A DNA stretch of 64,000 nt. It comes from Ignavibacteriota bacterium (lineage in GTDB: Bacteria; Bacteroidota; Ignavibacteria; UBA10030). The stretch spans positions 608,001 to 672,000 of the forward strand of contig CAVSHO010000009.1 in the NCBI GenBank assembly GCA_963727825.1. The letters are read 5' to 3'. The notes under the pieces are model-generated. The model made no database searches, was not told where the DNA came from, and saw only the letters and a program-made list of their open reading frames with translations. Positions 2,848-11,300 of this stretch are shown here, piece by piece; the first letter of the stretch is position 1, and each line of letters starts with the position of its first letter. Made by a program: the position numbers and the translations under genes.

Positions 2848-4350
2848 TTACTTTTTCTCTTCTCCGAACACCAAAGCTTCATACACAAATAACTCCGCAT
2901 CCTTCCAGCCATCCCAGCTAATGCCTGCTTTATCCTGAGCGCAGTGGCCCAGGAATTCTTCTTTTGTCCAACCGGTTTCTGCAGCCACCTGCGGCAGGAA
3001 TGTTCCAGAGCGGTATCCTTTTCGAATGTAAATACCATGCTTGCCAAGTTCTATTTCATCTACCGAGCTAATTCGCCGCATCGGCGTTAGCACGGAAATT
3101 TCTATTTCAAGTTCTGGAATTTCGCTAGATTCAACTGGTAAGAAGCGAGAATCCTGTGTTGACGATGCAATTGCCATTTCCTGCACAACTTTGTAAAGCG
3201 GCTCGCTCGCATCGAATCTCCCAATGCATCCGCGTAAGTTGCCGTTCTTTTTCAGAGTGACAAACGCACCGCAGTTTGTTTTCAATATCGGTGACAGATT
3301 CTTTTCATCTATTTCAGGCCTTGTATTATTCTTTACATAATGCTCAATTGTATTACGCGCAATTGCAAGCAGATTCTTTTTGTCTTTATCAGTAAGCTTG
3401 AATTCCGATCGTCCCTTCTTCTCTTTCAATGAGACAGTGATTGCGTTGTAGCCAACAACTCGGTTTTTATCTCCATATTCCGAATCACCGGAATTTTTAT
3501 ATTGAATATGAGTAAATGCAACATCTGCATTTCCTTCCGTCATGTAAAGTAATGTCAACACACTTGTCCAACCGCAAAGGCAGGTAGCAAGATTGGAAAT
3601 ACCTTTCTGCTCATAATTCACCATCGAGCGTATAAGATTCTCGGGTGAGTTAGTAAGAATCGCATCGGCAGTCGCTTTGTCTACGTTCTTTGCATCTGAG
3701 TAGGATGGATAGTGCGAAAAGTCTGTGCTGATGACAAAGAGATTTTTCGTGTTTAAATATGGATGCAATGCCTCGGCAATACGCCGGCAGGTTTCCGGAG
3801 ACTGAGTTCCAAGAATAATTGGAACAATTCTAAAATCCTTCTTCATTCGATATTGAAGAAAAGGAAGCTGCACTTCCAGACTGTGCTCGCGCGCATGTGC
3901 ATCCGTTCGATTGGAGAAAACACTGTTATTCTTGATAAGTTGATCGGCAAGCTTTGTGTTGACCTTCACCGTGCCCAGCGGCGTTATAAAATTGCCCTGT
4001 GAGTAAATCGATGCACCTTCAAAAGCAACATAGTGACTTGAACCAAGAATGAAGATGTTCTCATATTCTTTTGTCGGATCAATCTGGTTAAATGACGAAG
4101 CTGCCACTTCGCCGGAAAAAACATATCCCGCATGTGGAGAGATGATAGCAATAATGTTTTGAATATCTTTAGATGGGACAGCATTTGTGAAGAGCTGCTT
4201 CAATGTTACATTGAGTGTGTCCTGCCCAGCGGGATAGAACGAACCTGCAACTGCAGGCTGCCTGTCGATATTATTTTCTTGTGATTGGCAATCGGCACAC
4301 AAAAGCAGGAGGCAAGAAGCAATGACCGTAAGAGTCTTAGTTCTGTGCAT
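2848..4350 (-). CDS. amrB: AmmeMemoRadiSam protein B (Memo) fused to protein A (AMMECR1), with signal-peptide-like N-terminus
   Basis: RQPAVAGSFYP, PHAGYVFSG, EHSLEVQLPFLQ, STDFSHYP (Memo), then GAFVTL...LRGCIG, EISVLTP, GTFLPQVA (AMMECR1). Confidence 0.93.
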   Translation of the reverse strand: MHRTKTLTVIASCLLLLCADCQSQENNIDRQPAVAGSFYPAGQDTLNVTLKQLFTNAVPSKDIQNIIAIISPHAGYVFSGEVAASSFNQIDPTKEYENIFILGSSHYVAFEGASIYSQGNFITPLGTVKVNTKLADQLIKNNSVFSNRTDAHAREHSLEVQLPFLQYRMKKDFRIVPIILGTQSPETCRRIAEALHPYLNTKNLFVISTDFSHYPSYSDAKNVDKATADAILTNSPENLIRSMVNYEQKGISNLATCLCGWTSVLTLLYMTEGNADVAFTHIQYKNSGDSEYGDKNRVVGYNAITVSLKEKKGRSEFKLTDKDKKNLLAIARNTIEHYVKNNTRPEIDEKNLSPILKTNCGAFVTLKKNGNLRGCIGRFDASEPLYKVVQEMAIASSTQDSRFLPVESSEIPELEIEISVLTPMRRISSVDEIELGKHGIYIRKGYRSGTFLPQVAAETGWTKEEFLGHCAQDKAGISWDGWKDAELFVYEALVFGEEKK

Positions 4351-5681: not shown

Positions 5682-6452
5682 ATGACATCACTCGCTAATA
5701 CTATTGTTTTCATAACTGGTGCCAGCAGCGGCATCGGACGTTCTTGTGCACGAGCATTTGCTGAAGCCGGCGCAGACCTCATTCTCGTCGCACGCCGTAA
5801 AAATCGGTTAAAAAAAATCGCGGATGATTTAAGGAAACAGTTTAACACCGAAATATTTATTAACGAATTAGATGTGCGTGACAATCGTGCTGTAGCGAGG
5901 TTTTATAAACAACTTTCTGCTGAATGGCGGGATATAGATATTCTCATCAACAACGCCGGATTAAGCCGCGGACTAAATAAATTATGTGAGGGAAAATTTG
6001 AAGACTGGGAGGAAATGATCGACACGAATGTTAAGGGGCTGCTCTACGTTAGCCGCACTGTGCTTCCCGGAATGGTAGAACGCAAGAAGGGCACAGTCAT
6101 CAACATCGGTTCCGTTGCCGGACATGATGTCTACCCAGGCGGAAACGTGTACTGTGCAACCAAGCACGCTGTTGACGCGCTTACGAAGGGCATGAGGATG
6201 GATTTAGTTGATACACCAATTCGCGTTTGCACAGTTGATCCGGGATTAGTGGAAACAGAATTCAGCGAAGTGCGCTTCCACGGTGACAAGGAACGCGCGA
6301 AGAAAACATATCAAAACATGATACCTCTAACGCCTGATGATATTGCAGATGCTGTTTTATTCGCAGCTACACGCCCGCCGCATGTACAAATTGCCGAGTT
6401 AATTATCATGCCGACTGCACAGGCTTCGGCAACGCTTGTACATCGCACATAA
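5682..6452 (+). CDS. SDR family oxidoreductase (YdfG-like NADP-dependent 3-hydroxy acid dehydrogenase)
   Basis: TGASSGIG, NNAG, YCATK catalytic motif, PGLVETEFS. Confidence 0.9.
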   Translation: MTSLANTIVFITGASSGIGRSCARAFAEAGADLILVARRKNRLKKIADDLRKQFNTEIFINELDVRDNRAVARFYKQLSAEWRDIDILINNAGLSRGLNKLCEGKFEDWEEMIDTNVKGLLYVSRTVLPGMVERKKGTVINIGSVAGHDVYPGGNVYCATKHAVDALTKGMRMDLVDTPIRVCTVDPGLVETEFSEVRFHGDKERAKKTYQNMIPLTPDDIADAVLFAATRPPHVQIAELIIMPTAQASATLVHRT

Positions 6453-6530
6453 TAACAGGTTAGAAGTAATTCTCAATGCGAAAAGAATTTGAGAGGTTTA
6501 CGGGGAAAATTTTCGGGGATTTTGATGCGT

Positions 6531-7160
6531 TTATTCAATAATCTTATTTTTAAAAGCATATTTAACCAGCTCGATATTTGACCTTGCATTAAGTTTAGTA
6601 AAAATACGCTTACGGTAAGAGTTGACTGTATTCAAAGAAACTTTATACTCTCCGGCAATTTCTTTGGAACTTTTTCCCTCTGCCAGTCTTCGCAACACTT
6701 CATATTCGCGGTCGGTCAAATTGTGATGCTTTGGCTTACTTATTGCTTCATCTATAATATCCGGAAGTTCCTGCTGAACTTCCGGACTGAAATATTTCAT
6801 ACCTCGTGTAACCGTACGTACTGCTTTGATTAATTCTTCCCCCGGTTCGGCTTTTGTTAAGTATCCTGATGCCCCCGCTTGTAATATCCTGCGCGCATAC
6901 TGCGATACGGGAACCATGCTCAAGATCAATACCGGCACCTTGGATTCAATGGTTCTAATCGAGCTAAGAATTTCAAGTCCGCCTTTTCCCGGAAGATTGA
7001 TATCAAGAATAATAATATCCCATTTGTTGTTTTGTATCTGCTCCATTGCGTCTTCGTAATTTCCTGCTCGTGCAAGTTTCGTAATATCGAAATTGTCAGT
7101 TAAAATGTGAATGATTCCTTCACGCGTAAATTCATGATCATCTACAACAAGCGCTCTCAT
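6531..7160 (-). CDS. NarL/LuxR-family response regulator
   Basis: VVDDH, ILDINLPG phospho-acceptor, GYLTK, C-terminal LTDREYEVL...TVNSYRKRIFTKL HTH. Confidence 0.93.
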   Translation of the reverse strand: MRALVVDDHEFTREGIIHILTDNFDITKLARAGNYEDAMEQIQNNKWDIIILDINLPGKGGLEILSSIRTIESKVPVLILSMVPVSQYARRILQAGASGYLTKAEPGEELIKAVRTVTRGMKYFSPEVQQELPDIIDEAISKPKHHNLTDREYEVLRRLAEGKSSKEIAGEYKVSLNTVNSYRKRIFTKLNARSNIELVKYAFKNKIIE

Positions 7161-7162
7161 AG

Positions 7163-8002
7163 TTAATTACTCTCCGCCATTGACACCTTTGCCACATCTG
7201 CTACCACTGATTGATTCCCGTTGTGGATCGGGGCATTTAAAATAATGCATGTGCCTTTCCCGAGATTACTCGTGATTACAATTTTCCCGCCTAATATCCG
7301 GGCGCGTTCCTGCATGCTCATAATTCCTAATGACTCAGGATGAACAATCATTGCCTGATCAATACCTTTACCGTTGTCTGCTATTTCCACCTGGAGATCG
7401 CCGTTGTTTAATCGCATTGTAACTTCAGCGTGTGTAGCTTCTGAATGACGGGCAACATTGGTTAATGCTTCTTGAATTATCCTATAGACACCCGTTGTCA
7501 TCGCATCATTCAGAGATGGAAGCTTATCTGTTTGTTTGAGCCCTACTTCGATTGAAGTCCTTTTTGTGAATTCATGTATATGCCATTCCACCGCCGCTTC
7601 CAAGCCGACAGTATCTAATATTTTGGGCCTCAATCCGGAAGAGATTCTCTGAACAGTTTTCGTCGTTGTATCGACCATAGCCCGTATAGCTTCATACCGT
7701 TCTTTTACAATACTCTTCTTCATTGCAGTATGTTTTCCCAGCCAGAGCAGGTCATACTTGATGCCTGTCAGCGCGCCGCCGAGTTCATCGTGCAGTTCTC
7801 GGGCAATCTGTTTTTGTTCTTCCTCCCGTGCAGCTTGCAGCTTTTCTGAAAATATTTGCATTTGGCGAAGCCGTTCGCGCTGAGCGGCTTCTATTTTACG
7901 ATGGCTCCGTACCATCATCAGCACAAAAAATAAAAACAATCCTAGCATTACAATTGTAACGCTGAAAATTGCTATAAGTATTATGTTTGAGTCTGAGGAC
8001 AC
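7163..8002 (-). CDS. NarX/UhpB-type (HisKA_3) histidine kinase with one TM helix and no sensor domain
   Basis: One N-terminal hydrophobic helix, then IARELHDELGG H-box, QEALTNVARHS N-box, DNGKG, G-boxes. GTG start overlaps the upstream gene by 22 nt. Confidence 0.9.
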   Translation of the reverse strand: MSSDSNIILIAIFSVTIVMLGLFLFFVLMMVRSHRKIEAAQRERLRQMQIFSEKLQAAREEEQKQIARELHDELGGALTGIKYDLLWLGKHTAMKKSIVKERYEAIRAMVDTTTKTVQRISSGLRPKILDTVGLEAAVEWHIHEFTKRTSIEVGLKQTDKLPSLNDAMTTGVYRIIQEALTNVARHSEATHAEVTMRLNNGDLQVEIADNGKGIDQAMIVHPESLGIMSMQERARILGGKIVITSNLGKGTCIILNAPIHNGNQSVVADVAKVSMAESN

Positions 8003-8622
8003 AAGAATCCTATTGCAAAAAGTACATTAAAAAGGACCTTAAGACTCCAATCTATAGAAGAAACAAGTAAAAAATTTTCTACAGAAAAATGGATGAGAAT
8101 CCCGCGTAACGCAATAATTAACAATGTTCCTGCATAATAGATCACACAGGAAAGAAGTATCCAAAAACGATGATTATTTATTAAGGACTGCGTTCGATTT
8201 CCAATGACAATAAATAAAGTATATCCCGCACCGAGCGTAAGAATGACCTGTGAAGCACATGCTGTAACCGAATATAATCCATTTAGAGGCTCAAACGTGA
8301 ACTTTGCAATGATCCAAAAAATTACGTAAAGCAACATTAGTACTTGAAATAATTTCTTTATCCGACGCGATTCCTGCCAAAAAGTAACAATAGACATGAT
8401 AAATATATATTCTATGAGATAATAAGCATGGTGAAGTCCAAGAGCAAATTGATATCCCCTAACGAACCATATAAAATAAATGTCTGCCGCAAATGCAAAT
8501 ATTAGATAAAAAAGTATAATATACATTTCTCGGTGTAATACCTTTATTTTCGAAATTCCTACACCGATCGGTAAAACAGAACTGAAGATTGATATATACG
8601 TTAATAATGGATATGGATTCAT
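7981..8622 (-). CDS. Uncharacterised integral membrane protein (~7 TM), probable sensory partner of the kinase
   Basis: Seven hydrophobic segments with short loops; stop codon lies inside the kinase 5' end. Confidence 0.75.
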   Translation of the reverse strand: MNPYPLLTYISIFSSVLPIGVGISKIKVLHREMYIILFYLIFAFAADIYFIWFVRGYQFALGLHHAYYLIEYIFIMSIVTFWQESRRIKKLFQVLMLLYVIFWIIAKFTFEPLNGLYSVTACASQVILTLGAGYTLFIVIGNRTQSLINNHRFWILLSCVIYYAGTLLIIALRGILIHFSVENFLLVSSIDWSLKVLFNVLFAIGFLCPQTQT

Positions 8623-8822
8623 CTGCTATGAATATAGAAGTCGTTCTTGAAATATGAACTCTAAATATCATAAGTCAATCAACAGAATGTCGTTCCATCA
8701 ACAAATAAAGTCTACGACACTTGAATATTGATACGGTGGACATCGCTTATCGTACATTTCCACCACATTATATTATGACTTTTAAGATAGCAAATGAATC
8801 TCGCTCTTGCAATCTAAGTATC

Positions 8823-9194
8823 TTAATTACCACACCAGGGGGGACAAAGATCTACCGGACCAGCCAAAACAGTTGGAACCATATCCTTTCCATATTTATC
8901 AACTCCAACAATCGCGAATCCAGATCTGCCGTTTACATGTTTGGCATAATACATGCGAACTCCTACACAGCCGGGTTGCTTCATGGTTTTTTCTACAACA
9001 TCCTTTCCAAAGTAATGAACAAGTACATCATTCGACGAAACAGAGATGCGGTGTACGTTTGTCAGAGCGGCTAAATTCTGTGAAGCACTTGATTGTCCTG
9101 CATTAATAGATTTATCGGTTGATGGATAAACGAAGAACATGATCACGCTTATTGCGAGGATCGAGGCGACAGCAACAATTTTCTTTATAGACAT
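8823..9194 (-). CDS. Small exported protein with C-terminal CPPWC motif
   Basis: RBS-like AAGGAG upstream; MSIKK plus hydrophobic helix; HYFGKDVVE..QPGCVGVRMYY..AIVGVDKYGKD..LCPPWCGN. Confidence 0.75.
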   Translation of the reverse strand: MSIKKIVAVASILAISVIMFFVYPSTDKSINAGQSSASQNLAALTNVHRISVSSNDVLVHYFGKDVVEKTMKQPGCVGVRMYYAKHVNGRSGFAIVGVDKYGKDMVPTVLAGPVDLCPPWCGN

Positions 9195-9499
9195 TTGAAA
9201 TCTCCTTAAGAAGATGATTAGTTTTTTTTATTTATTCACGATCAATAGACAAGAATGTATATAATGGTGACATTGGAAAACAATACGGTGGGGAGCGCGT
9301 TGGCTGCGATTTACAGATTTCAAACATTGTAGTCCTTTCAATGTTTTTTATGATCAATGCTAACGAAAACTGTGGGTCAATTTTTTGTTCAGCCTGTTCT
9401 AAGCAACCTTGACAACCTTTCAAAATAGCTCAAACAACGTAAAATATTCAATACTGCATTTGTGTCAAATTGCTATACGAGTAAATTAACATGTATTCT

Positions 9500-9828
9500 T
9501 GTCGTTATTTACACTATAAGCTACACCAAAACACACTATTTGTCTGTCGTATTTTAACAAGTTGCTTGTAGCGATTTTTGTCACGTCCCTGTCGTAAAAG
9601 TACTAACGATTTGACAACATTTACACATATAGACCTAACAAAATGGTTTAAGAATATCATGTGTATACTTGTGGAAAAATCACTACAAGATTATAAATAG
9701 CAGTTATTTGGCTGTTTTTTATCACTTCGTAATAAGATAAGAGTTGACAACTTGTTCATAGTATACTGCAAAACGACAGAAGTACGTGGTAAAAATACGA
9801 CAATGTACTTGTTGTAATACGACAAGTA
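9500..9828. promoter_or_regulatory. Phased TGTCGT/ACGACA boxes in a divergent intergenic region, candidate regulator sites
   Basis: TGTCGT at 9500, 9545, 9590; ACGACA at 9773, 9797, 9819; 11-1-11 inverted repeat at 9806-9828. Confidence 0.5.
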
Positions 9829-9940
9829 GAAAATTGCTTTTACTTACGTCTCCTCCGTATATTGATTTGCGTAGATTCTGAATTCGTGATAAGAGGTGTT
9901 AGATTTTTAATAAACGTTCTATTACAAAAGTATAAAGTTA

Positions 9941-10345
9941 ATGCAAATACAAGATTATAAATCCAGGCGCGGCCTTCAATATTCATATGGACAAATATGG
10001 GAAAAGATACTGGGTAATATGAAAGAAGAATACAATCAAATATCTGCTGAAAAAATTCTTCACGAAGCGACCACGGTATTAAATGCCGCACGTCAGCATG
10101 CCTCAGAACTTTCAGAGCGCGGAGTGACGGATGAGGAGTTTCATGCCATGCGTGTTCTTATTACTCGTGTTGCTGCGCGCACATATACTTCTTCACTAGG
10201 AAATAATATCGACTTCGCTACCGAAGTGCGCAACCTTAAAATTTATAAAGAAGTCATTTTCAGAACGGCAGAAATGCAATTTGGCCACACAAACAATGTG
10301 CTGAACGAATTTAAATATGCCGCACCACATTATTCGTTTATTTGA
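9941..10345 (+). CDS. Hypothetical alpha-helical protein (true start may be ATG 10019)
   Basis: 134-aa ORF with amphipathic helical pattern; no recognised motif. Confidence 0.55.
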   Translation: MQIQDYKSRRGLQYSYGQIWEKILGNMKEEYNQISAEKILHEATTVLNAARQHASELSERGVTDEEFHAMRVLITRVAARTYTSSLGNNIDFATEVRNLKIYKEVIFRTAEMQFGHTNNVLNEFKYAAPHYSFI

Positions 10346-10505
10346 TATATCTCGCATCCAAAAGATTTATCCCAGAAATTGATAGATGTAAATGGTATTC
10401 GAGTAAGTAAAAATACTTCGTAGTACCAATTGGTTTTACATAATGTAGATTATATATAGAACCGACTACTTCTGCTTTTTACCACATTCATCAAAGGAGA
10501 TTATA

Positions 10506-11300
10506 ATGAGGCCACGCATATCCATAGCACGTATAAAATCAGTACAGAAGTTCCGATATGGCTGGGTTCCGGATGTGCCCGACCAGCGAGATCTTCTTTA
10601 TGGCGCAGTGTGTCCCGCTCCTTTAGTGCTTCCGCAAAATGTTGACTTGCGACCGACATGCTCGCCAGTGGAGAACCAAAGTACTCTCGGAAGTTGTACG
10701 GGCAATGCTCTTGCCGCTGCAATCGAGTTTCTCGAACGAAAGGACAATGTTCCGTTCGTGGATGCGAGCAGATTGTTTATCTATTATAATGAACGGGCTA
10801 TCGAGGGAACCGTCAAATCGGATTCAGGGGCAATGATACGCGATGGAATCAAAACATTGAAGAATCAGGGAGTGTGTTCCGAAATAAATTGGCCATACAT
10901 CGTTTCAAAATTTGCAATTAAGCCAAGTGAATCTTGTTACAAAGAAGCGCTGAAGCGACAAATCACATCGTACCATCGCATTCTTACGGTCGACGAAATG
11001 CGGACGTGCCTCGCCGAAGGTTTTCCGTTTGTGTTCGGGTTCACTGTGTATGAGAGTTTCGAATCGCAGGAAGTTGCGCGCTCCGGCATTGTGCAAATGC
11101 CTCAGCCGAATGAACGCTCCATTGGCGGTCATGCAGTGCTTGCCGTTGGGTATGACGATATACAGAAACGATTTATTGTCCGGAACTCGTGGGGAACCGA
11201 CTGGGGAATGAAAGGATATTTCACAATCCAGTACGACTATCTTGCAAACCGAAATCTTGCCGACGATATCTGGACGATACGTAGAGGAGAAAAGATGTAG
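10506..11300 (+). CDS. Papain-like C1 family cysteine peptidase
   Basis: NQSTLGSCTG (Gln/Cys), GGHAVLAVGYDD (His), VRNSWG (Asn); RBS AAGGAG; no signal peptide. Confidence 0.92.
   Translation: MRPRISIARIKSVQKFRYGWVPDVPDQRDLLYGAVCPAPLVLPQNVDLRPTCSPVENQSTLGSCTGNALAAAIEFLERKDNVPFVDASRLFIYYNERAIEGTVKSDSGAMIRDGIKTLKNQGVCSEINWPYIVSKFAIKPSESCYKEALKRQITSYHRILTVDEMRTCLAEGFPFVFGFTVYESFESQEVARSGIVQMPQPNERSIGGHAVLAVGYDDIQKRFIVRNSWGTDWGMKGYFTIQYDYLANRNLADDIWTIRRGEKM

Follow-up and report, generated by a model that had tools for sequence, protein, structure and literature searches.

The present analysis concerns a 64,000-nucleotide (nt) stretch of DNA, hereafter the window, from an Ignavibacteriota bacterium of the phylum Bacteroidota (contig CAVSHO010000009.1, positions 608,001 to 672,000), and in particular a set of four genes at positions 6531-9194 of it. 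All four are co-oriented on the minus strand, where they encode, in this order, a small protein with a pair of cysteines close to its C-terminus, a protein with seven transmembrane helices (7-TM protein), a histidine kinase and a response regulator. The genes, and a conserved non-coding block that lies among them, are as follows (aa, amino acids; ORF, open reading frame; TM, transmembrane):

9194..8823, minus strand: small protein, 123 aa, with an export signal or anchor at the N-terminus, a conserved alpha/beta domain of ~80 aa and CPPWC at the C-terminus
8782..8812, minus strand: conserved non-coding block, directly 3' of the stop codon of the small gene; a hairpin follows at about 8725-8765
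8622..7981, minus strand: 7-TM protein, 213 aa, stand-alone, N-out/C-in (ORF and AlphaFold2 model)
8002..7163, minus strand: histidine kinase, 279 aa, GTG start, with a six-residue outside stub, one TM helix, HisKA_3 and HATPase_c
7160..6531, minus strand: response regulator, 209 aa, REC and GerE (NarL/LuxR type)

An AAGGAG sits 8 nt 5' of the ATG of the small protein. The 7-TM and kinase genes overlap by 22 nt (7981-8002), and this overlap is real because the kinase reading frame is closed by a TAA nine codons 5' of its GTG, with no ATG, GTG or TTG between the two. Only 2 nt separate the stop codon of the kinase from the ATG of the regulator, while a spacer of 200 nt, which carries the conserved block and the hairpin, parts the small gene from the other three in the window. 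A first-pass annotation, made from the sequence alone, had described these four co-oriented genes together with the 22-nt overlap and the 2-nt gap; the ORFs, the Pfam searches and the AlphaFold2 model confirmed this description in every detail, and the overlap and the gap were found at the coordinates given above.

How widely the gene set is conserved was examined in 401 genomes that were drawn evenly from the phylum, among which related genomes do not count as independent. A profile of the 7-TM protein matched 82 of these genomes and 52 of 179 genera, and matches to a profile built from 26 diverse small proteins were found in 45 genomes and 33 genera. For 63 of the 77 small-protein matches, distributed over 39 genomes, a 7-TM match was located directly downstream on the same strand within 600 nt, the smallest gap being 8 nt. 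Conversely, a small-protein match lay directly upstream of 62 among the 150 7-TM matches listed, beyond which there were nine more. Seven of the 14 non-adjacent small-protein matches were examined: six had a weaker 7-TM match in place (E 5.8e-3 to 2.5e-7), and the seventh had an unassigned gap of about 590 nt in the 7-TM position. Others of the 14 were tandem extra copies. The full order of small protein, 7-TM protein, kinase and regulator was found in 18 of 20 loci around small-protein matches. Among 29 loci anchored on the best 7-TM match of each genome, the small gene was present in 25, in 24 of them directly upstream, and a histidine kinase directly followed the 7-TM gene in 24 of the 29 (23 recognized by Pfam and one by phmmer); the fetched loci span 3.6 kb, so that genes further off can be missed. 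The four-gene arrangement, found in the same order in dozens of genomes, is thus far beyond chance. These counts agree with the earlier expectations that the small gene would be linked to the 7-TM, kinase and regulator genes and that the gene order would be common in Bacteroidota.

The carriers are labeled as metagenome-assembled genomes (MAGs) of Ignavibacteria, Ignavibacteriota, Bacteroidota, Crocinitomicaceae, Lishizhenia and Sphingobacterium, and include the cultured Larkinella soli, whose locus (L076) comprises the small gene, the 7-TM gene and the kinase. A single genome may hold up to seven 7-TM matches. The open frames of the 7-TM protein and the kinase often overlap. Given that the partner kinases are of two kinds, either short HisKA_3 kinases or longer PAS-containing HisKA/HisKA_3 kinases, the pairing of 7-TM protein and kinase holds across kinase classes. 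Two or three tandem 7-TM genes are found between one small gene and one kinase/regulator pair in three loci (L046 of genome G335, L008 of G085 and L010 of G189), and such tandem 7-TM genes sharing one kinase are as expected of input modules. Conservation does not extend beyond the four genes in the 23 named loci; the flanking genes include those for tRNA synthetases, a dehydrogenase, a metallo-beta-lactamase-fold protein and cargo of type IX secretion. Nor is a processing protease, an AgrB-like protein or an ABC exporter conserved beside the set in these 23 loci, in which not every neighbor was scanned. The database records of these proteins bear hypothetical or clearly spurious names, and our literature search found nothing relevant to the four-gene module.

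Domain searches place the kinase and the adjoining regulator in a NarL/LuxR-class two-component system. In Pfam, the kinase matched HisKA_3 (PF07730) at residues 62-127 (E 3.3e-10; 40.8 bits, cut-off 24) and HATPase_c (PF02518) at 171-259 (E 4.6e-13), and the regulator matched Response_reg (PF00072) at 4-115 (E 3.1e-25) and GerE (PF00196) at 147-202 (E 5.5e-19). The sole hydrophobic segment of the kinase spans about residues 7-31, after the six-residue stub, and is followed by a basic stretch; neither Pfam nor inspection of the sequence revealed an extracytoplasmic or other input domain. In NCBIfam, the kinase aligned only to the C-terminal halves of the MctS, UhpB, NarQ/NarX and LiaS models, all far below cut-off, and the N-terminal input regions of these sensors are absent from it. 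Because it has one TM helix and no extracytoplasmic or other input domain, the kinase cannot sense the outside by itself. The same build, one hydrophobic stretch followed by basic residues, was found in 38 of 38 HisKA_3 kinases adjoining 7-TM genes, which extends the earlier statement that the kinase has one TM helix and no sensory domain to its relatives in this position.

The 7-TM protein belongs to a family of 440 representative clusters (E <= 0.001 in a search of 1.84 billion representatives). Its AlphaFold2 model has a mean predicted local distance difference test (pLDDT) score of 94.3 and a predicted template modeling (pTM) score of 0.90, and consists of seven membrane-length helices (residues 6-24, 31-53, 60-81, 86-109, 118-141, 151-176 and 181-207) joined by very short loops. 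The protein had no match in Pfam or NCBIfam and none in a profile search of the Protein Data Bank (PDB), and a protein atlas search returned unnamed clusters only. Among 43 family members, any one Pfam family matched 2 at most (E <= 1).

In 54 of 54 7-TM sequences, the counts of Lys and Arg place loops 1, 3 and 5 inside (4-11 such residues, vs. 0-4 in loops 2, 4 and 6). The protein is therefore oriented N-out/C-in. The helix of the kinase is also N-out, because the catalytic domains of a kinase must be cytoplasmic. Joining the two chains would place the kinase domain outside the cell, and the 7-TM protein and the kinase must therefore stay separate chains. This fits the absence of a fused form in our searches: the best 150 of the 440 family matches span 69-252 aa without a fused domain, and no fused form was found in a search limited to proteins of at least 392 aa, which is weak evidence. 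The possibility that the 7-TM gene is a frameshifted, broken-off N-terminus of the kinase was rejected, given that the family is stand-alone, that its C-terminus (GFLC) is conserved and that topology forbids fusion. Thus, the first-pass proposal that the sensor is split between a 7-TM receptor and a kinase holds in the functional sense, as the kinase has a separate, conserved 7-TM partner, but not in the sense of a once-fused sensor, for which no fused form was found and which would be topologically impossible.

Polar residues conserved among 122 7-TM sequences are H65, E71, K107, E111, R152, Y162, N199 and C208, of which H65 and E71 in TM3, Y162 in TM6 and N199 in TM7 are located within the membrane. 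The conserved residues form an outer cluster (N60 and W62, found in most members, with W103, K107 and E111) and an inner cluster (R152-F153-W154 and C208). Cys208, the cysteine of the GFLC end, lies at the cytoplasmic end of TM7 and is conserved in 78% of the sequences. A Foldseek search with the 7-TM model gave transmembrane domains of G protein-coupled receptors (GPCRs) as top matches (best E 0.046, TM-score ~0.55), and GPCR-class, GPCR-like or microbial rhodopsin chains made up 49 among the 50 VIA-align rows listed (Z 10.4-13.6, root mean square deviation 3.9-5.3 Å over 186-213 residues). Because Z values below about 13 are common for helical bundles, as the tool itself warns, this likeness is read as a shared seven-helix arrangement and not as homology.

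The small protein begins with MSIKK, continues with a hydrophobic segment and ends with LCPPWCGN. Its 100 close matches all lack a name. The small protein of the window had no match in Pfam, no Pfam family was common to the members of its family, and a protein atlas search returned unnamed Bacteroidota clusters only. Two cysteines, C117 and C121, are invariant in 26 of 26 diverse homologues, and both prolines between them are kept in at least 90%, while a third cysteine, C76, is not universal among the same homologues. Of the 100 close relatives, 87 have CPPxC and 90 have CxxxC within their last 30 residues; several of those that lack these motifs are fragments. The prediction that CPPxC would be conserved was thus borne out, with the refinement that the tail motif across the phylum is C-P-x-x-C, often followed by x3-SPLN, and that CPPxC is the form of the clade of the window. 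Of 48 homologue ORFs, 43 contain a C-x2-3-C motif. The residue at x of CPPxC varies among the close relatives (L 21, Y 19, W 14, I 11, F 9 and N 7). The conserved unit is, however, the whole domain of ~80 aa and not the tail alone. An AlphaFold2 model of modest confidence (pLDDT 66.9) predicts the arrangement beta-alpha-alpha-beta-beta-beta, for which fold searches returned nothing usable (Foldseek best E 0.35; VIA-align best Z 4.5), as did a PDB profile search (best E 1.5).

An N-terminal hydrophobic segment, either a Sec-type signal with an AxA site, an anchor or a lipobox, was found in 18 of the 48 small-protein homologues. In the other 30, no export signal was found, and their stop-to-stop frames have no hidden upstream hydrophobic segment. 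When 52 7-TM proteins were arranged in a tree, one clade of 19 rows (support 90/87), which includes the window, took up 18 of the 20 rows whose small partner bears a signal; the tree needs at least three changes of signal state. No 7-TM residue was found to track the signal status of the partner. Ala33 is conserved among the relatives of the small protein, at an AxA-like site (INA|G), which suggests that the small protein of the window is cleaved into a soluble periplasmic protein of ~90 aa. We propose, as part of the best explanation, that the small protein would act in the periplasm in the clade of the window.

Our preferred explanation, to which we assign a rough probability of 0.55, is that the module forms a sensor of separate proteins, in which the kinase receives its signal from the 7-TM protein through the membrane, under modulation by the small protein via its Cys pair. 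The 7-TM protein would be the membrane partner and input subunit of the kinase and would perceive a signal, probably in a polar pocket within the helix bundle, and relay it sideways, by physical contact in the membrane, to the single helix of the kinase. The kinase would in turn control how far the NarL/LuxR-type regulator is phosphorylated. As a third subunit, co-inherited with the 7-TM protein, the small protein would bind or modulate the 7-TM/kinase pair, with the invariant Cys pair as the likely switch, responding to thiol oxidation, a metal or an electrophile; the nature of the signal and the direction of control are thus predictions of this model. That the 7-TM protein is the partner of the kinase is, taken by itself, a claim we consider probable and appreciably safer than the whole, while the specific role given to the small protein deserves less than the figure for the whole reading. 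Thiol-redox or metal input via the Cys pair, which the first-pass annotation had mentioned as an alternative, fits the data better than the peptide quorum sensing that it favored.

Several observations weigh against this explanation. Five of the 29 7-TM-anchored loci lack a Pfam-recognizable kinase after the 7-TM gene: three of them have a one-helix coiled-coil ORF without a Pfam match instead, one has the regulator directly next and one has no signaling gene. In seven copies that are present in one genome from the same order as that of the window (G125; L078, L079 and L080), the small protein is a lipoprotein in which the domain occurs twice in tandem and the Cys pair is missing; each copy precedes a divergent 7-TM gene, with no kinase or regulator adjoining. 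Two of the 23 named loci (L074 and L075, from MAG records labeled Zixibacteria and Ignavibacteria) carry a signal-less small gene without a 7-TM gene, kinase or regulator, flanked there by genes with type IX secretion sorting domains. Distance correlation in a mirror-tree analysis between the small protein and the other three proteins is weak, with a Spearman coefficient of 0.13 for the 7-TM protein that is uninformative in either direction at this divergence; the coefficient for kinase and regulator is 0.58. Moreover, the side of the membrane on which the small protein lies differs by lineage (18 of 48 with an export signal and 30 without), against an unchanging 7-TM topology. A docking mode that is the same throughout is hard to reconcile with a small domain that is periplasmic in one clade and cytoplasmic elsewhere; the domain could either have no single fixed docking or play an autonomous role, for example as a thiol or metal switch that is read from either side. 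Finally, gene order alone cannot tell input subunits from co-regulated output genes.

The last point leads to the reading that the small and 7-TM genes are not input but regulated cargo, for example for envelope protection and autoregulated as liaIH, with the helix of the kinase sensing the membrane state directly. Single-helix or intramembrane-sensing kinases, such as DesK and LiaS, can indeed respond to membrane perturbation, and in the window expression of the small gene may differ from that of the other three because of the 200-nt spacer with its conserved block and hairpin. Outside the genus of the window, however, the frames of the small gene, the 7-TM gene and the kinase gene adjoin or overlap one another, separated in places by as little as the 8 nt noted above, which suggests matched protein amounts; the pairing of 7-TM protein and kinase persists over two kinase classes, and tandem 7-TM copies share one kinase. 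We therefore consider this reading improbable. Activity sensing, as in BceAB-BceS, would also account for a kinase without a sensor: the 7-TM protein would be an enzyme or transporter that works with the small protein on a thiol, a metal or a lipid-linked compound, and the kinase would monitor its working state. The conserved polar or charged residues H65, E71, N199 and Y162, Cys208 at the cytoplasmic end of TM7 and the fact that most small proteins are cytoplasmic and carry the Cys pair are consistent with such a role. The 7-TM protein nevertheless has no sequence match to any enzyme or transporter family, its nearest folds are receptor-like seven-helix bundles and not known transporters, and its loops are all very short, which together make this reading unlikely.

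The first-pass annotation had proposed a third possibility, namely a cell-to-cell signal in which the small protein, or a released, disulfide-closed CPPxC tail, is an exported ligand that activates the kinase through the 7-TM receptor. In the clade of the window, the export signal and the conserved Ala at the likely cleavage site are consistent with this proposal, as are the variable x of CPPxC, which could be a specificity residue, the multiple 7-TM matches per genome (up to seven) and the location of several conserved 7-TM residues in the outer half of the bundle. However, 30 of the 48 small-protein homologues lack an export signal, some exported forms lack the Cys pair, and neither a protease nor an AgrB-like protein nor an ABC exporter is conserved beside the module. 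The conservation of a whole fold of ~80 aa is unlike that of pheromone precursors, and the kinase and regulator classes differ from those of Agr and Com. Peptide quorum sensing of the Agr/Com type is thus not supported, and we see little chance of a protein or peptide signal, which is conceivable solely for the clade with an exported small protein. A bolder version holds that a stand-alone receptor family of GPCR-like topology pairs non-covalently with single-pass kinases and has the Cys-pair protein as ligand or co-receptor, so that the exported form of the Ignavibacteria-like clade would serve cell-to-cell signaling. We regard it as speculative and as quite improbable. Our literature search found no stand-alone seven-helix receptor/kinase system of this sort in Bacteroidota, and we know of no such receptor/ligand system in this phylum.

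Among known systems, the preferred explanation of a multi-protein sensor resembles SaePQRS, LiaFSR-LiaX and UhpABC in its logic. SaePQRS of Staphylococcus aureus has four genes in the same logical order: SaeP is an exported lipoprotein of 146 aa, SaeQ is a membrane protein of 157 aa with 4 TM helices, and SaeS is a kinase without an extracytoplasmic sensor, accompanied by a regulator. SaeR is of the OmpR type and not of the GerE type, and to our knowledge SaeP has no Cys-pair motif. All four members of a SaePQRS-like gene set have a counterpart here, namely the exported small protein, the small polytopic protein of the membrane, the kinase lacking an extracytoplasmic domain and the regulator; this is a likeness of function and not homology. 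SaeQ differs in having four helices instead of seven and SaeS in having two TM helices and a HAMP domain instead of one helix and HisKA_3, and the system belongs to another phylum. No sequence relation to SaePQRS was detected, the small and 7-TM proteins being without a Pfam match and the SaeP and SaeQ sequences themselves not having been compared. SaeP and SaeQ are reported to form a ternary complex with SaeS that switches on its phosphatase activity (PMC5083920).

The LiaFSR-LiaX system of Firmicutes resembles the module in its HisKA_3-class intramembrane-sensing kinase, its NarL-type regulator and its accessory proteins in the membrane and at the surface. LiaS has two TM helices. The kinase of the window aligned to the NCBIfam LiaS model with E 1.3e-23, far below cut-off. 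Unlike the small protein, LiaX is large, has two domains and is encoded elsewhere. In the account given in PMC10269926, LiaX and LiaF jointly restrain LiaS, in what its authors term a four-component system, and LiaX is the surface protein that binds the stimulus alongside the membrane protein LiaF. The LiaF domain PF09922 (accession per PMC10269926) was absent from the Pfam results for the proteins of the window and from the 25 of 30 weak families (E up to 1) that were listed for the 43 7-TM members.

A stand-alone polytopic sensor is also found in UhpABC of Escherichia coli. In this system, UhpC signals to the HisKA_3 kinase UhpB, which in turn acts on the NarL-type regulator UhpA; UhpC is a 12-helix MFS protein, and UhpB has a polytopic N-terminal domain of its own. 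The kinase of the window aligned to C-terminal positions 269-495 of 499 of the UhpB model (E 1.9e-35, below cut-off). Unlike UhpC, the putative sensor here has seven helices, no MFS match in Pfam and no link to sugar phosphates, and the Uhp system has no small Cys protein. The 7TMR-DISM, 7TMR-HD and HisKA_7TM domains and the GPCR and rhodopsin folds are likewise N-out seven-helix bundles linked to signal transduction. The first three are fused to their output domains. None of the three gave a Pfam match, although remote homology below the reach of HMMER is possible. Microbial rhodopsins have a conserved retinal-binding Lys in helix 7, in contrast to the 7-TM family, in which no Lys column reaches 60% in the 122 sequences and the column of K195 of the window varies.

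The likeness to Agr (AgrBDCA) and Com consists of a small gene that adjoins genes for a membrane protein, a kinase and a regulator, and of a small product with a functionally suspicious cysteine. AgrD is an unstructured precursor of ~46 aa, within the usual range of about 40-50 aa, the precursor is processed by the peptidase AgrB, a polytopic sensor is fused to the kinase AgrC itself and AgrA is a regulator of the LytTR type, while in Com or double-glycine signaling a dedicated ABC exporter with a C39 peptidase domain is encoded beside the precursor. The small protein here has 123 aa with a conserved domain of ~80 aa that is predicted to be alpha/beta, the kinase has one hydrophobic segment and the output domain of the regulator is GerE. 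The 7-TM protein of the window had no match to the AgrB family, which was also absent from the 25 of 30 weak families listed for the 43 members, and no ABC exporter was found among the neighbors of the 23 named loci that were scanned.

Kinases that depend on accessory proteins are of an already known kind. New are the two protein families, the pairing of a 7-TM protein with a single-helix kinase and the topological constraint on this pairing. Many histidine kinases of Bacteroidota have no recognizable input domain; for a large group among them, the module suggests an answer to what they sense that can be tested, namely that input is delegated to a seven-helix family and a small Cys-pair protein. 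If the pairing is true, the 7-TM proteins would be a new class of receptor in bacterial signal transduction and a natural case of a receptor and a kinase kept as separate chains for topological reasons. The move of the small protein from cytoplasm to periplasm with the 7-TM orientation fixed is an evolutionary experiment on which face of the complex matters.

Further analyses concerned the non-coding block and the surroundings of the module. The core of the block at 8782-8812 is invariant in 6 of 6 loci of the same genus, and the block is also present in the nearest named relative (L054); the base pairs of the hairpin that follows are largely kept. The block occurs only once in the window, and the genome contains one exact copy of it. 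An Rfam search of positions 6300-10500 gave no match for the block and one chance-level match only. Block and hairpin (8712-8812) could serve as promoter or operator, as terminator or as RNA processing site, and so adjust how much small protein is made relative to the other three. The block recalls the RNA processing site that is reported between saeP and saeQ (PMC5449607).

All four genes (window 6400-9400) are covered in part by contigs of two metatranscriptome libraries from peat, each from a different study; the contigs derive from relatives that are mostly 88-95% alike and only hint at natural expression, because a contig shows neither transcription nor its strand or level. Divergently upstream of the module lie a 134-aa ORF of no family (9941-10345, plus strand) and a gene for a C1 (papain-family) peptidase without a signal peptide (10506-11300, plus strand). 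This peptidase was considered as a processing enzyme of the module and rejected as such. Both genes are probably outside the module because they are kept only in L054. Further downstream of the four genes, the window contains a 500-aa ORF with a signal-like N-terminus (2848-4350, minus strand). The genome of the window also has a second module (G000:C9:160435-161873; L002 and L003), in which a signal-less small protein of 110 aa comes first. Next is a 7-TM gene that is interrupted by an internal TGA or frameshift, then a second, degenerate small gene that lacks the Cys pair, and finally a PAS-HisKA kinase. To judge from its genes, this module looks like a decaying paralogue.

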